Virus record (IMG/VR): IMGVR_UViG_2648501165_000014
Direction: 5' to 3' (one strand)
From: a virus
Taxonomy: Duplodnaviria > Heunggongvirae > Uroviricota > Caudoviricetes
DNA: 3,772 nucleotides
Shown here: positions 1-3,772 of the stretch, in pieces
Layout of the letters: the number at the start of each line of letters is the position of its first letter
Numbering within the stretch: the first letter of the stretch is position 1
The notes under the pieces: generated by a model
The model's input: only the letters and a program-made list of their open reading frames with translations
What the model was told of the DNA's origin: nothing
Databases searched by the model: none
Made by a program: the position numbers and the translations under genes

Positions 1-357
1 TTAAAAAATCAGAACGCCGTGCGGCCTCAACACCCGAAAGGCTTCTTTAAATCTCTGTCGCGAATCATCACGCCAGGCATCTTTATTCAGCCGTCCATAT
101 TTCTTTCCCATCCAGGCGTTATCACCAACACTCTCAAGATGCGGAGGGTCTAATACAACCATCGAAAAAGATGCGTCTGCAAATGATAATGCACGAAAAT
201 CTGCGATAATGTCAGGGCTGATAATCAAGCGTCTCCCATTGCGTAATGTGTATCCTTCTTTTCTGATATCGCTGAATATCGCCCGTTCGTCAGACTTATC
301 GAACCAGAACATGCGGCTGCCACAGCACATATCAAGAATGGTTGCCGGTGCACTCAC
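1..357 (-). CDS. Putative SAM-dependent methyltransferase-like protein (amino-methyltransferase motifs), 118 aa, possibly truncated
   Basis: Complete ORF with GTG start at 357-355 and TAA stop at 3-1. The start overlaps the upstream gene's TGA by 4 nt (GTGA), suggesting translational coupling. The protein has an N-terminal motif-I-like segment (ILDMCCGSR) and, about 60 aa later, a DPPH tetrapeptide preceded by hydrophobic residues (MVVLDPPH), resembling motif IV (D/N-P-P-Y/F/H) of N6-adenine/N4-cytosine and RsmD/HemK-type methyltransferases. It ends just after a strand-like segment (LRPHGVLIF), so it is short for a full methyltransferase fold. Family assignment is by motif only. Confidence 0.55.
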   Translation of the reverse strand: MSAPATILDMCCGSRMFWFDKSDERAIFSDIRKEGYTLRNGRRLIISPDIIADFRALSFADASFSMVVLDPPHLESVGDNAWMGKKYGRLNKDAWRDDSRQRFKEAFRVLRPHGVLIF

Positions 358-776
358 TGCGCCACGTCCTGAAAATTACCCTGATAGAAAGCCAGTATGC
401 GCTGCATAACTTCGCTCTTCCGGCACTCGCGACAGATTCTGTTTAGGCGACTGTCGTAGCGACGTATTTCTCCGTCAGGTGATGACCAGATAAGGTCCGG
501 ATCAACCACAGCAGGTTTCTTCACCTTTGCCCTCGAGAGTTTTTTGCGGGCGTTTTGCCAGTCCTTACGCGCCTGTTCAGAGGGGAATAACCCGTAGCCG
601 GAGTTGTATACATCGCCACTGGCTACCAGCTCTCTGGCAAGAACGCTCATCAGATATCTAGTCGCACCTGTTTTAGCTTCCAGTTGCCGTAACGTCTCAC
701 GGCCGCTCTGGCGCACGAGTTCCACCACCTGCCATTTAATTTTTTCCCGCTCTTCTTGTGTAAAAACTTTTGCCAC
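354..776 (-). CDS. Hypothetical protein, 140 aa, putative winged-helix/HTH DNA-binding N-terminus with a basic central region
   Basis: ORF with GTG start at 776-774, preceded on the - strand by a strong Shine-Dalgarno (AAGGGGGA) about 5-12 nt upstream, and TGA stop at 356-354. It lies 40 bp downstream of the O-like gene and is coupled to the downstream methyltransferase-like gene. The N-terminal ~60 aa (EEREKIKWQVVELVRQSGRETLRQLEAKTGATRYLMSVLARELVASGDV) has the look of a winged-helix domain; the centre is basic (ARKKLSRAKVKKP); there is a single CxxC (CRECR). No confident family assignment. Confidence 0.55.
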   Translation of the reverse strand: MAKVFTQEEREKIKWQVVELVRQSGRETLRQLEAKTGATRYLMSVLARELVASGDVYNSGYGLFPSEQARKDWQNARKKLSRAKVKKPAVVDPDLIWSSPDGEIRRYDSRLNRICRECRKSEVMQRILAFYQGNFQDVAQ

Positions 777-816
777 AAGTCCCCCTTAAAATTACCTCAT
801 GACCTGAAATCAACAC

Positions 817-1782
817 TTATCCTCTGAAACCAGGCGGAATTTCTGTATCCGGTTCAGAAATATGATTAACACAACGCTGTACAGGTGAACGTCCCAGGCG
901 GATGACCAGTTCGTCCCATTTTTCGCGGAGCTTTGACGGGCTCATGATGTTTTTTACCCAGAATGGATCTCGCTGAACCCGACCAAACATTTCGCAAATT
1001 TGTCTGTGGCTTCTGCCATCCAGCATCCGCATTGTGCGCACGTCATTGGCCCAGGCAGTCCAGTTAGGCTCTTTTGGTCGCATGATCTCGCCATCATCAC
1101 TGGCTGCCTGTTCGTAGAGACCCACGATCCGCCCCCAGATCCACTGCGCACACGCCAAATCCTCCCTGCTACCCCACTGGCGTTTTTTCGCACTAAACAC
1201 AACCGCGTCGGAGTTCCGGGTTAAAAAATCCTGTTCAGTCGTCTGCGGGTCCGGTTGCGAAGCTTCCGGACGAAAAGTGTTTTTATTCTCTGTAGTAATC
1301 TCTGTTGTATTCTCTGTAAGATCATCAGGCCATTTTGACCCGATGACATTGGGTCGTTTTGAACCAATGGAGCGTTTCATTTTGACCTCTTCCATCGTGT
1401 CATTTTGACCTGATGGAGCGGCGCATTTTGAACCGATGGATTCGCTCAATTTGCCACCATCTAAAAGCTCGCTCCCATAGTTGATCGTGTAGAAATTGGT
1501 CATATCGCGCTTTGATTTATTGAGCTTTTCACAACGCAAAAGCCCCAGCGTTTTCAGACTTGCAAACGCGCGCTTTAACGTTGACTCTGACCAGAATGGG
1601 AACTGTTCCAGCCATTGTTCCGTTGTGTTATAAATCCAGCGAACACCATCACATTCCATGCCGGAGTTGGTATCTCTCAACCAGTAGTGCAGTTGTTGCA
1701 AAACAATGGCTTCGTTTAAGCCAATTTTCATTGCCAGCTGCGTGTTTATAACCAGTGGGCGTTCAGCAAAAAGAAGGCTCAT
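817..1782 (-). CDS. Replication initiation protein, lambda O-like (phage replisome-organiser N-terminal winged-helix domain) with embedded iteron origin
   Basis: Uninterrupted frame 817-1836. The preferred start is ATG at 1782-1780 (MSLLFAERPLVINTQ...) with a GGATGG-like SD; the ORF-track start at 1836 is TTG with no SD. The N-terminal region (FAERPLVINTQLAMKIGLNEAIVLQQLHYWL...STLKRAFASLKTLGLL) resembles the O/DnaD-like replisome-organiser winged-helix. The central linker is encoded by tandem DNA repeats (SIGSK...SIGSKRPNVIGSK and TENTTEITTEN), as the lambda O gene contains ori-lambda iterons. Confidence 0.8.
   Translation of the reverse strand: MSLLFAERPLVINTQLAMKIGLNEAIVLQQLHYWLRDTNSGMECDGVRWIYNTTEQWLEQFPFWSESTLKRAFASLKTLGLLRCEKLNKSKRDMTNFYTINYGSELLDGGKLSESIGSKCAAPSGQNDTMEEVKMKRSIGSKRPNVIGSKWPDDLTENTTEITTENKNTFRPEASQPDPQTTEQDFLTRNSDAVVFSAKKRQWGSREDLACAQWIWGRIVGLYEQAASDDGEIMRPKEPNWTAWANDVRTMRMLDGRSHRQICEMFGRVQRDPFWVKNIMSPSKLREKWDELVIRLGRSPVQRCVNHISEPDTEIPPGFRG
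1286..1318. repeat. Three tandem 12-bp repeats (core TCTCTGT) in an AT-rich stretch flanking the iterons; candidate DNA-unwinding element of the origin
   Basis: TTCTCTGTAGTA / ATCTCTGTTGTA / TTCTCTGTAAGA, with the TCTCTGT core at 1287-1293, 1299-1305 and 1311-1317 (exact 12-bp period). They lie next to the iterons on the 3' side of the array in the O-gene reading direction and are flanked by T-rich sequence (GTGTTTTTATTC 1278-1289). This matches the iteron-then-AT-rich layout of lambda-type origins. Confidence 0.45.
1331..1460. repeat. Iteron array (putative replication origin) inside the O-like gene: about 5-6 direct repeats, consensus CATTTTGA(C/A)CnGATGGAGC, ~24-bp phasing
   Basis: Seen directly: CATTTTGACCCGATGACAT (1331), CGTTTTGAACCAATGGAGC (1355), CATTTTGACCTCTTCCATCG (1379, second half inverted), CATTTTGACCTGATGGAGC (1401), CATTTTGAACCGATGGATT (1425), and a degenerate CAATTTGCCACCATC (1448). 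Start-to-start spacing is 24, 24, 22, 24, 23 bp. Confidence 0.7.
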
Positions 1783-2222
1783 AATTCCATCCAGCTTTTT
1801 GTTGGTATTGCTGTCGATACGCAAGTTTGAAAGCAATTGCTTTTTCTATAAGTTCGTCAGTTTCACGATCCACTACGGCAGGATCAGCAAAAAGCAGTCC
1901 GGACTCCACCACATCGCCATATTCTTTGNNNNNNNNNNCACGTGATGCTTTTTCCGTCAGTAATTTCACGATACAACCTGAAATCATTAATCCGGATAGC
2001 CTCCATAATTGCAGGCACTAGCGCCGTGAACTTTTCACGCTTATCCCTGGTGTCGATAGCCTTCCAGCGTTCAAATATCTTCACTCGATTAACGCCAAGC
2101 GCTCGCTGATCAATCGCGCCACCTTCATATGTGACACGCTGAACATCGATGTTCGGGCGCTCTTTCAAAGCCGGCGCTCGTCTGATGTAAGAGATAAAGA
2201 AATCGATGAGCGAAGTAATCAT
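1763..2222 (-). CDS. Hypothetical protein of unknown function, reading frame interrupted by a 10-N assembly gap (apparent frameshift; possibly annotated as pseudogene or two fragments)
   Basis: The frame from ATG 2222-2220 (SD GGGAGAG 6 nt upstream; the ORF track's TTG at 2240 is less likely) is open down to the N-run and terminates 14 codons beyond it. A second frame is open from just upstream of the N-run to the stop at 1765-1763, running 55 codons past the gap. The simplest reading is one gene of about 150-160 aa whose frame is scrambled by the placeholder gap. The product is not recognisable. Confidence 0.45.
1929..1938. other. Assembly gap (run of 10 N)
   Basis: Literal nnnnnnnnnn in the sequence. 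The length is probably a placeholder, so the true sequence and length are unknown. Confidence 0.95.
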
Positions 2223-2457
2223 GATTGTCTCTCCCGGCAAATGGGTATCCGAAGAGCAGTTAATTGCGCTGAAAGGAATAAAAAAAGGTACGTTAAAAAA
2301 GGCCCGGGAAAAATCGTTTATGGAAGGAAGGGAATATAAGCATGTCGCTCATGACGGTATGCCATGGGATAACAGTCCATGCTTTTACAACCTGGAAGAA
2401 ATTGATCGCTGGATTGAGCGCCAGGCATCAGCGAGACCAAGACGTCATCTTACTTGA
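2206..2457 (+). CDS. xis: Excisionase-like protein (Xis; recombination directionality factor)
   Basis: Small basic ORF (83 aa from ATG 2206, or 78 aa from ATG 2221) immediately upstream of, and co-oriented with, the integrase (19 bp from the xis stop to the int ORF start). The sequence (WVSEEQLIALKGIKKGTLKKAREKSFMEGREYKHV...PCFYNLEEIDRWIE) has the character of enterobacterial prophage excisionase-like proteins. Stop is TGA at 2455-2457. Start codon is ambiguous, as neither ATG has a strong SD. Confidence 0.7.
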   Translation: MSEVIMIVSPGKWVSEEQLIALKGIKKGTLKKAREKSFMEGREYKHVAHDGMPWDNSPCFYNLEEIDRWIERQASARPRRHLT

Positions 2458-2491
2458 CTAAAAGCCACACTAACTAATGAGAGAAGTTGAA

Positions 2492-3772
2492 ATGAAATAT
2501 CCGACAGGCGTGGAAAACCATGGAGGGAAATTACGTATCTGGTTTGTTTATAAAGACGTAAGAGTCAGGGAAAATCTGGGGGTTCCTGACACAGCAAAAA
2601 ACAGGCGCGTTGCAGGTGAACTACGCTCCTCTGTTTGTTACGCAATAAAAACTGGTGTTTTCGACTATGCAAAACAGTTTCCCTCCTCACGCAATCTGGA
2701 AAAATTTGGTGAGGCCCGACAAGATTTAACCATAAAAGAACTGGCTGAAAAATTTCTGGCACTGAAAGAAACTGAAGTCGCCAAAACATCACTCAACACA
2801 TACCGTGCCGTCATCAAAAATATCCTGAGCATAATCGGTGAAAAAAATCTTGCCTCATCGATTAATAAAGAAAAATTACTGGAGGTTCGTAAAGAGTTAC
2901 TGACTGGATACCAGATCCCCAAAAGTAACTATATTGTTACACAACCAGGGAGATCGGCTGTAACTGTAAATAATTACATGACAAATCTTAACGCCGTGTT
3001 CCAGTTTGGTGTTGATAACGGTTACCTGGCAGATAATCCGTTTAAGGGGATCTCGCCATTAAAGGAATCAAGAACCATTCCGGATCCTCTTTCGCGGGAA
3101 GAATTTATCCGTCTTATCGATGCGTGCAGAAATCAGCAAGCAAAAAATTTATGGTGTGTTTCTGTTTATACTGGAGTTCGCCCTGGTGAGCTGTGTGCAC
3201 TTGGATGGGAGGACATAGATCTGAAAAATGGAACAATGATGATCAGGAGAAATTTAGCAAAAGACCGTTTCACGGTACCAAAAACACAGGCGGGAACCAA
3301 TCGGGTCATTCATCTTATTAAGCCAGCAATCGACGCTCTCCGGAGTCAGATGACATTAACGAGACTGAGCAAAGAGCATATCATTGATGTTCACCTCAGA
3401 GAGTATGGCAGAACAGAAAAACAAAAATGCACCTTTGTTTTTCAACCTGAAGTGTCAGCGAGAGTAAAAAATTATGGTGACCATTTTACCGTTGACTCAA
3501 TAAGGCAGATGTGGGACGCAGCGATAAAACGTGCCGGACTCCGCCATCGAAAATCATATCAGTCGAGACATACTTATGCCTGCTGGTCGCTGACAGCTGG
3601 TGCTAACCCGGCATTTATAGCAAACCAGATGGGCCATGCAGATGCGCAAATGGTATTTCAGGTATACGGAAAATGGATGTCTGAAAACAATAATGCACAG
3701 GTAGCTTTGTTAAATACACAGTTAAGCGAGTTTGCCCCAACCATGCCCCATAACGAAGCAATGAAAAATTAA
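2492..3772 (+). CDS. int: Tyrosine site-specific recombinase (phage integrase, lambda-Int family with N-terminal arm-type DNA-binding domain)
   Basis: The ORF is open from ATG 2477. The preferred start is ATG 2492 (MKYPTGVENHGGKLRIWF...), which has a purine-rich SD-like GAGAGAAG 5 nt upstream, whereas 2477 has none. The C-terminal catalytic domain shows the conserved tyrosine-recombinase signature residues: R in VYTGVRPGEL, the H-x-x-R box in SRHTYACWSL, H in MGHAD, and the nucleophile Y in VFQVYGKWM. The N-terminus (GGKLRIWFVYKDVR) resembles the arm-binding domains of enterobacterial prophage integrases. Stop is TAA at 3770-3772, the window end. Confidence 0.9.
   Translation: MKYPTGVENHGGKLRIWFVYKDVRVRENLGVPDTAKNRRVAGELRSSVCYAIKTGVFDYAKQFPSSRNLEKFGEARQDLTIKELAEKFLALKETEVAKTSLNTYRAVIKNILSIIGEKNLASSINKEKLLEVRKELLTGYQIPKSNYIVTQPGRSAVTVNNYMTNLNAVFQFGVDNGYLADNPFKGISPLKESRTIPDPLSREEFIRLIDACRNQQAKNLWCVSVYTGVRPGELCALGWEDIDLKNGTMMIRRNLAKDRFTVPKTQAGTNRVIHLIKPAIDALRSQMTLTRLSKEHIIDVHLREYGRTEKQKCTFVFQPEVSARVKNYGDHFTVDSIRQMWDAAIKRAGLRHRKSYQSRHTYACWSLTAGANPAFIANQMGHADAQMVFQVYGKWMSENNNAQVALLNTQLSEFAPTMPHNEAMKN

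Follow-up and report, generated by a model that had tools for sequence, protein, structure and literature searches.

The unassigned gene at 1763-2222 of a Caudoviricetes record reads as a deletion remnant of a YdaT-family, CII-like regulator gene of the Escherichia coli Qin prophage

Experiments have established YdaT as the functional counterpart of lambda CII (PMC8630535, PMC9986795, PMC11879457). The YdaT proteins for which the mechanism has been studied, those of CP-933P and Rac, form tetramers that recognise an inverted repeat close to the cro/cII boundary and switch on a PRE-like repressor promoter (PMC9986795, PMC8630535, PMC11879457), and they need oligomerisation to function (PMC9986795, PMC11879457). 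Their tetramer geometry differs from that of lambda CII, and they read an inverted repeat instead of a direct one (PMC9986795). In CP-933P YdaT (PDB 8bt1), the architecture comprises α1, α2, a long α2-α3 loop, α3 with an Arg-Trp pair, and C-terminal helices (PMC9986795); this protein and the YdaT of E. coli O6 (3c4r) are about 141 aa long. The YdaT of the K-12 Rac prophage plays a CII-like role and forms a tetramer through its long C-terminal helix (PMC11879457). It is intact, comes under repression by RacR and OxyR, and has the host rcsA promoter as a further binding target.

We analyzed a 3,772-nucleotide stretch of a Caudoviricetes record (IMGVR_UViG_2648501165_000014; hereafter the window), in which a minus-strand gene at 1763-2222 lies between an O-like replication initiator gene and a divergent excisionase-integrase pair. 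Judged by its sequence, this gene is the 3′ 138 codons of a CII-equivalent YdaT-family regulator gene from a lambdoid E. coli prophage of the Qin (DicA/DicC) type. Taken as a whole, the data are best explained if the window copy is a non-functional remnant of that Qin gene left by a 5,060-bp deletion, a reading that we hold to be very probable. Membership in YdaT, the counterpart of lambda CII, makes this an already known family and no new regulator. The features are listed in Table 1. For the integrase gene, the longest ORF begins at 2477, and the host gene rspB adjoins it in related genomes.

Table 1. Features of the window, with the parts of the fused gene listed separately.
Feature	Coordinates	Strand	Details
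O-like replication initiator gene, 321 aa	817..1782	-	PHROG 391 'replication initiation O-like', E 1.1e-91
YdaT-family 3′ part	1763..2172	-	codons 36-173 and stop of WP_000705358.1; N run inside
ORFs as they stand in the record	1884-2240 and 1763-1987	-	different frames, N run 1929-1938 between them
Placeholder	1929..1938	.	10 N for 18 bp TTTAACCCGGCGATCATG, encoding part of ...T-C-M-I-A-G-L-N-K...
Deletion junction	2172..2173	.	AAAGCC / GGCGCTCG; codon 36 of YdaT-family gene joined to point 35 bp upstream of xis
Fusion codons, n = 17 (MITSLIDFFISYIRRAP)	2173..2222	-	antisense of xis leader (2173-2205) and of xis codons 1-6 (2206-2222)
Excisionase gene, DUF1233	2206..2457	+	Pfam PF06806, E 1.6e-31
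Tyrosine integrase gene, 426 aa from annotated start	2492..3772	+	Pfam Arm-DNA-bind_2, Phage_integrase

The initial annotation could not assign the protein to any family, a view refuted by the family searches. The intact 173-aa relative (WP_000705358.1), which NCBI names 'toxin YdaT family protein,' matched PHROG 163 'CII-like transcriptional activator' over residues 1-155 (E 5.5e-40). It also passed the gathering score of 21 for Pfam YdaT_toxin (PF06254) with 24.2 bits, as did the gap-closed fusion with 24.6 bits; the N-terminal half alone reached 20.6 bits, just under this cutoff. An NCBIfam scan of the intact protein returned no family. In Pfam scans with E-values allowed up to 1, YdaT_toxin was the only match, and none was returned to the lambda CII family (Phage_CII); the likeness to lambda CII is functional and positional only, not one of sequence membership.

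Against the PDB, a single-sequence search was marginal (3c4r, E 0.063; 8bt1, E 0.083), and significance was reached only with profiles. A broad profile (A2) found 8bt1 at E 8.5e-22 and 3c4r at E 4e-21 (profile positions 2-114), and a strict Qin-type profile (A3), built without canonical-like rows, found them at E 2e-5 and 1.3e-4. Both the profile search and the structure prediction that had been proposed as checks thus led to known YdaT proteins. An AlphaFold2 model of the intact relative from a 16-sequence alignment (pLDDT 84.9) placed helices at residues 5-16, 23-35, 57-73, 77-97, 99-106, 111-130, and 135-163, with a long loop at 36-56. An earlier model from six sequences was unusable (pLDDT 49.5) and was kept out of the fold search. 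The two top Foldseek hits of the later model were 8bt1 and 3c4r, both at probability 1.00 with modest E-values (0.013 and 0.035) and about 26-29% identity over the structural alignment. The intact relative is accordingly modeled as a five-helix POU-like helix-turn-helix, whose α2-α3 loop is unusually long, followed by a long oligomerisation helix, the predicted counterpart of the CP-933P architecture. Across 16 diverse homologues, R70 and W71 of recognition helix α3 never varied; in the alignment with 8bt1 they fall on its ...IF-RW... motif (Arg60-Trp61; PMC9986795), and they correspond to R57 and W58 of Rac YdaT (PMC11879457), a distant paralogue from the same Pfam family. At 173 aa, the intact Qin-type protein is longer than the 8bt1 and 3c4r proteins, and an additional helix is predicted at its C-terminus.

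An intact prophage would produce the 173-aa protein from a rightward early operon, dicC(cro-like)-ydaT-like-O-like-..., and homology with the YdaT proteins that have been studied predicts a tetrameric helix-turn-helix transcription factor. It is expected to work like CII, by analogy with those proteins, and its regulatory mechanism is likewise drawn from homologues with only ~26-29% identity to it over the structural alignment. Intact Qin-type loci have the gene order dicA / dicC / YdaT-family / O-like / DUF977 / methyltransferase, which puts the gene after a cro-like gene and before an O-like gene, the position that cII holds in lambda. The initial annotation had placed the gene in a cII slot and proposed synteny in related elements as a check; both hold in these relatives, whereas the window keeps only the O-like neighbor. 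Its observation of an overlap of about 20 nt with the O-like start was also right: the YdaT-family stop codon lies at 1763-1765 and the annotated O-like start at 1782, giving a 20-nt overlap that is native to the operon in relatives.

The 10-N placeholder had been said to break the reading frame, and it does, splitting a real minus-strand ORF (1763-2222) into two frames. Alignments to near-identical DNA from five loci (L001-L005) show 18 bp, TTTAACCCGGCGATCATG on the plus strand, in place of the 10 N. Two of these, L004 and L005, are gap-free E. coli assemblies that match the window at 100% over 3,780 aligned columns once the 10 N and a single 8-nt gap are set aside, and L001-L003 have the same 18 bp at the same place. 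The 8-nt shortfall of the placeholder is the exact cause of the apparent frame change. Closing the gap, as had been suggested, here against near-identical E. coli assemblies, restored a single ORF of 155 codons from the ATG at 2222. Its 155-aa product is an exact database protein (P0079) on 170 E. coli contigs; a 161-aa version starting at TTG 2240 was not found in the protein collection. These alignments mark the N run as a fault peculiar to this record, and it accounts for the apparent frame break. The allele is stably present on the 170 contigs, which clonal descent explains; its carriers include the isolates behind GCA_046576045.1 and GCA_013185625.1. A further expectation, that automated annotation would skip the gene or call it a pseudogene, held in part: gap-free GenBank records call it a 'hypothetical protein,' and the pseudogene label appears in RefSeq, on a sister allele that bears an insertion sequence (IS).

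Comparison with an intact Qin locus (L001) revealed the larger alteration. By BLAST, window positions 1-2172 correspond to L001 4402-6581 with a single non-N mismatch, and positions 2171-3110 correspond to L001 11642-12581. The alignment endpoints and junction sequences place the absence of 5,060 bp of intact Qin at 2172/2173. Lost with this segment are dicC, dicA, ydfA, ydfB, ydfC, dicB, ydfD, an exonuclease gene, the native promoters, and codons 1-35 of the YdaT-family gene. The 17 N-terminal codons of the fusion are foreign to the YdaT sequence, and the start at 2222 is a fusion artefact derived from xis-leader antisense. Relative to the 8bt1 and 3c4r proteins, the window copy is missing α1 and α2 of the DNA-binding domain (residues 1-35), which are replaced by these unrelated residues, and the domain is incomplete; the copy is a truncated, pseudogene-type member of the family. 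The fusion ORF lies head-to-head with the excisionase gene, with a 17-nt overlap.

The history of the junction is suggested by the sister allele of strain UTAK-1, in which an IS3-family element lies 3 bp from each deletion endpoint and RefSeq annotates the gene as a pseudogene without its N-terminus. The closest complete genomes carry an IS3-family element at the junction spot; OkiPb01711, like UTAK-1, is an IS-bearing genome. Past the IS ends, a further 3 bp and 2-3 bp of native flank are absent from the window junction. Most likely, the deletion was IS-mediated and the IS was then lost, perhaps by a nearly precise excision across a CC microhomology. A direct microhomology deletion independent of the IS allele was also considered, but it seemed unlikely given that each endpoint is no more than 3 bp from an IS end in UTAK-1.

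The proposed course of events begins with a deletion that would have taken dicA, dicC, both early promoters, the dicB operon, and codons 1-35. The remainder would have been fused to xis-leader antisense, where a chance ATG opens the 155-codon frame. Its product would be without α1 and α2 of the five-helix DNA-binding domain, and the gene without its native promoter and presumed operator region; because all of these are gone, the remnant is most likely non-functional. The suggestion that it might regulate replication or excision therefore fails for the window copy, which has neither codons 1-35, nor the native start and promoter, nor a YdaT-type operator region. Gap closure, the deletion endpoints, family membership, and the gene order of intact relatives are shown by the data. 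We infer that the remnant is not expressed and has lost its function, and that the IS was excised from an earlier state of the junction.

Among the alternatives, the one that survives best supposes that the 155-aa fusion is expressed and forms mixed tetramers that dampen the YdaT-family (CII-like) regulators of co-resident prophages in a dominant-negative manner. The ORF is intact after gap closure, and its ATG at 2222 is usable, with GGGAGAG, by chance resembling a Shine-Dalgarno sequence, placed 8 nt upstream of it. Any read-through transcript crossing the ORF, for example one arising by antisense transcription from the rspAB side, could lead to its translation. The fusion retains recognition helix α3 (R70, W71) and all C-terminal helices, including the predicted ones at 111-130 and 135-163, and residual oligomerisation of its product may persist, a property that YdaT requires (PMC9986795, PMC11879457). 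However, the native promoters are deleted, and a simple scan of 1700-2700 turned up no sigma-70-like promoter on the plus or the minus strand where 1.7 were expected by chance, an absence that is weak evidence. Loss of α1 and α2 probably destabilizes the globular domain. The presence of the allele on 170 contigs could be taken in its favor, but these are identical in sequence and therefore give no sign of selection, and independent decay of the same region in other strains suggests neutral loss. We regard an expressed, dampening fusion as improbable. Its more elaborate form, in which low-level product from read-through poisons or re-targets intact YdaT-family CII-like regulators as a domesticated dominant-negative fragment, is a still slimmer prospect; if true, the fragment would shift the lysis-lysogeny behavior of co-resident lambdoid prophages.

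Less credible still is the reading of the initial annotation itself, an intact, unclassified regulator that heads a leftward operon and controls replication or excision. The gene does lie directly upstream of the O-like gene, with the 20-nt overlap, and is divergent from xis-int. Yet the protein falls in a named and studied family, its first 17 codons are xis-leader antisense in place of 35 native ones, and in intact relatives dicC and a promoter stand upstream of it. The gene is first in its operon, in the regulatory position described, only through the 5,060-bp deletion; the real first gene, dicC, is lost, and the apparent position arises because dicC went together with the repressor gene dicA, the promoters, and codons 1-35.

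A toxin function, in a YdaS/YdaT-type toxin-antitoxin pair, is just as hard to sustain. The NCBI and Pfam names invite it, and over-expression of Rac YdaT leads to filamentation and cell death (PMC11879457). That toxicity is, however, ascribed to transcription-factor action (PMC11879457), and experimental studies conclude that YdaS and YdaT are analogues of Cro and CII and form no bona fide toxin-antitoxin module (PMC8630535, PMC9986795, PMC5917428). The copy in question is only a fragment, and the window no longer contains its partner gene, dicC.

Lastly, we rejected, as having next to no chance of being right, the notion that the junction is itself an assembly artefact from a collapsed IS element: although the IS-less junction occurs in 0 of 5,426 complete RefSeq E. 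coli genomes, its exact 37-mer gave 0 hits in species-representative genomes and 0 in JGI metagenome contigs, and the closest complete genomes have the IS3-family element there, the exact fusion protein has been called on 170 contigs drawn from numerous separate assemblies (some as long as 1.28 Mb and 5.1 Mb), the junction is identical in L004 and L005, and the native bases flanking the IS are gone, unlike in an assembler collapse.

The preferred reading, a deletion remnant, also bears on YdfX (b1568) of the K-12 Qin prophage, which is the same gene. YdfX corresponds to the 5′ part, its residues 1-93 being 100% identical to the 173-aa protein, and like the intact gene it overlaps dicC by 17 nt; it is C-terminally truncated, and the replication genes are lost. 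In the window, by contrast, it is the 3′ part (residues 36-173) that survives, and dicC and dicA are gone. YdfX and the window remnant are independent decay products of one gene.

The biological weight of the locus is low, as the least-explained ORF of the window is a remnant of a characterized family in a well-known cryptic prophage. It does carry three cautions. An N placeholder of the wrong length, here 10 N for 18 bp, makes a false frameshift; a deletion fusion can imitate a divergent "regulatory" arrangement with head-to-head overlapping starts; and the label 'toxin YdaT' misleads, the protein being a CII-like transcription factor. K-12 YdfX is now tied to its full-length parent gene.

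The two minus-strand open reading frames predicted on either side of the N run, 1884-2240 and 1763-1987, lie in separate frames. Using megablast against complete E. coli genomes, we found the DNA flanking the gap in about 3,300 genomes, and the matches spanned the N run without a break, 573 bases of the query pairing with 581 of the record. A base-level comparison put 18 bp, TTTAACCCGGCGATCATG, in place of the 10 N, and this 8-nt difference in length exactly accounts for the apparent frame shift. Two gap-free E. coli assemblies from GenBank (GCA_046576045.1 and GCA_013185625.1) aligned to the window along its full length (3,780 columns); apart from one 8-nt gap and the 10 N they do not differ from it, identity outside the gap being 100%. 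Judged from these alignments, the gap is an artefact of the window's own record. Once it is closed, the frame from ATG 2222 encodes 155 aa, and the exact sequence is present in the public protein collection as "hypothetical protein [Escherichia coli]" (entry P0079), on 170 contigs of up to 5.1 Mb. Thus, the initial annotation correctly described one gene broken by a placeholder, and its 20-nt overlap with the O-like gene agrees with the start at 1782 annotated in relatives.

Features of the window surrounding the gap-broken frame
Feature	Coordinates	Strand	Supporting match
DNA methyltransferase gene	1-357	minus	
DUF977 / Ren-like gene	354-776	minus	
O-like replication initiator gene	817-1782	minus	PHROG 391, E 1.1e-91
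N run	1929-1938		
Excisionase gene (xis)	2206-2457	plus	PF06806, E 1.6e-31
Tyrosine integrase gene (int)	2492-3772	plus	

Several features of the neighboring genes were also recorded. The DUF977 protein hits PHROG 142, "Ren-like exclusion protein" (E 1.3e-46), and its gene occupies the slot of P or ren in lambda; the stretch from there to the O-like gene contains no gene for a P/DnaC-like loader. The O-like gene contains an iteron-like array of about five copies of the 23-bp CATCnnnnCATTTTGAmCnGATG at 1323-1438, spaced 23-24 bp apart; ahead of them, at 1284-1319, stand three 12-mers in tandem (TATTCTCTGTAG). This region (1284-1438) resembles a lambda-type origin located within the initiator gene. 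The C-terminal 20-25 or so residues of the O-like protein (window 817-880) match the C-termini of several replication-protein families that otherwise differ (phrog_18526, phrog_3729), and weakly match the C-terminus of the primosomal protein DnaT (NF002770, E 0.0059); a short motif for interaction may be common to all of these. The longest integrase frame opens at ATG 2477 (431 aa), whereas ATG 2492 is the start in all annotated relatives (426 aa, MKYPTGVENHG...).

The protein had been considered unassignable to any known family, a view that did not survive comparison with its relatives. In other genomes, its counterpart is a 173-aa protein annotated as "toxin YdaT family protein" (WP_000705358.1), whose residue numbers we use here. 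Pfam YdaT_toxin scored 24.2 bits on the intact protein and 24.6 bits on the window's protein, above the gathering score of 21, and the N-terminal half by itself scored just under it (20.6 bits). PHROG 163, "CII-like transcriptional activator," matched residues 1-155 (E 5.5e-40). Sixteen diverse homologues were gathered with a word-indexed search and with HMMER run exhaustively; out of 1.84 billion proteins, HMMER retrieved only 65 representatives at E ≤ 1e-3. The resulting profile matched YdaT crystal structures over the entire DNA-binding domain (CP-933P, 8bt1, E 8.5e-22; E. coli O6, 3c4r, E 4e-21). Because one of its rows looked partly canonical, the search was repeated with Qin-type rows only, and the same two structures came out on top (E 2e-5 and 1.3e-4, respectively). 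An AlphaFold model built from the 16-homologue alignment was confident (pLDDT 84.9), and Foldseek ranked 8bt1 and 3c4r first with it (probability 1.00, 26-29% identity over about 138 columns), at modest E-values of 0.013 and 0.035 and with no related structure below them in the ranking. The model has helices at 5-16 and 23-35, a 21-residue loop, and further helices from 57-73 onward. R70-W71, invariant in the alignment, aligns with Arg60-Trp61 of CP-933P YdaT; its equivalent in Rac YdaT is R57-W58, a pair required for DNA binding and fold (PMC11879457). The gene is a member of a known, experimentally studied family.

Published work identifies YdaS and YdaT as the counterparts of Cro and CII in lambdoid prophages of the Rac and CP-933P types, and not as a toxin-antitoxin pair (PMC8630535, PMC5917428). 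YdaT forms a tetramer; its binding site is the inverted repeat TTGATT-N6-AATCAA, located between ydaS and ydaT, and the promoter it activates is PRE-like (PMC9986795, PMC8630535). In addition, Rac YdaT targets the host rcsA promoter (PMC11879457). Given these published analogies, placing the gene in a cII/cro-type slot from position alone was right.

In an intact Qin-type prophage (L001), the order is relB ... methyltransferase, DUF977, O-like, YdaT-family, and dicC (cro-like) on one side, and dicA (repressor), ydfA, ydfB, ydfC, dicB, ydfD, exonuclease, xis, and int on the other. Window 1-2172 corresponds to L001 4402-6581, and the window from 2171 on to L001 from 11642 on, so 5,060 bp are deleted from the window, at the junction AAAGCC|GGCGCTCG (2172/2173). 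Both early promoters, dicC, dicA, the dicB operon, the exonuclease gene, and codons 1-35 of the YdaT-family gene were lost. The gene heads the leftward operon in the window only because dicC, which precedes it in L001, is deleted here. The retained part, A36 to C173, is joined to DNA normally 35 bp upstream of xis, and the 17 foreign codons (MITSLIDFFISYIRRAP) plus ATG 2222 are the minus-strand reading of the xis leader and first six xis codons, which explains the odd head-to-head overlap of two starts at 2206-2222.

Judged by the AlphaFold model and the YdaT structure (PMC9986795), the missing residues 1-35 are helices α1 and α2; the globular DNA-binding domain, which has five helices, thus loses two, the first HTH helix among them. 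A promoter scan of 1700-2700 found no sigma-70-like promoter on either strand; a Shine-Dalgarno-like GGGAGAG lies 8 nt upstream of ATG 2222 by chance. We conclude that the frame is a promoterless, N-terminally truncated deletion-fusion remnant, most probably inactive. Read-through transcripts could conceivably express it; that the fragment would then interfere with the intact YdaT-type regulators that other prophages encode, the sole non-trivial possibility left, is highly improbable. The xis-int pair (2173-3772), which in intact Qin closes the operon on the dicA side (ydfABC-dicB-ydfD-exonuclease-xis-int), has likewise lost its upstream operon. Just 35 bp of native DNA are left upstream of xis, so the normal promoter of the excision functions is probably gone.

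The closest relatives suggest how the junction arose. UTAK-1 and OkiPb01711 are 99.4-99.5% identical to the window with the 10 Ns counted in. UTAK-1 shares the window's left-hand context and carries at the junction position a 1,240-bp IS3-family element (L002 6184-7423; ends TGAAGTGG...CCACTTCA) with a frameshifted transposase gene, between ...GCCCAG and ACCGGCGC... Neither deletion endpoint is more than 3 bp from this element, which is flanked by CAG and ACC with no target duplication, and UTAK-1 has three extra native bases on the ydaT side and two to three on the xis side. Since both flanks are native, the IS-bearing allele cannot derive from the window's. Conversely, the window's allele would result if CAG, the IS, and AC(C) were lost between two flanking CC dinucleotides in a nearly precise excision. 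This comparison suggests that an IS mediated the deletion and was later lost, almost precisely, across a CC microhomology. The IS-less junction occurs in none of 5,426 complete RefSeq genomes, nor in species-representative genomes or JGI metagenome contigs; its presence on 170 contigs from draft or GenBank assemblies, despite this absence elsewhere, shows that it is real and lineage-restricted.

The Qin immunity region has also decayed independently in CE10, NCCP12480, and K-12. CE10 (L007 3263-5595) has a different IS3-family element in the YdaT-family gene with a different endpoint, its deletion reaching the exonuclease gene and its xis frameshifted. In NCCP12480 (L003 6268-6409), part of dicC runs directly into an integrase gene truncated at its 5' end. 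K-12 has lost the replication genes and keeps only residues 1-93 of the 173-aa protein, at 100% identity, as the 96-aa YdfX (L006 3347-3637, b1568). YdfX is the remnant of the same CII-like gene that lacks the C-terminal part, complementary to the one in the window.
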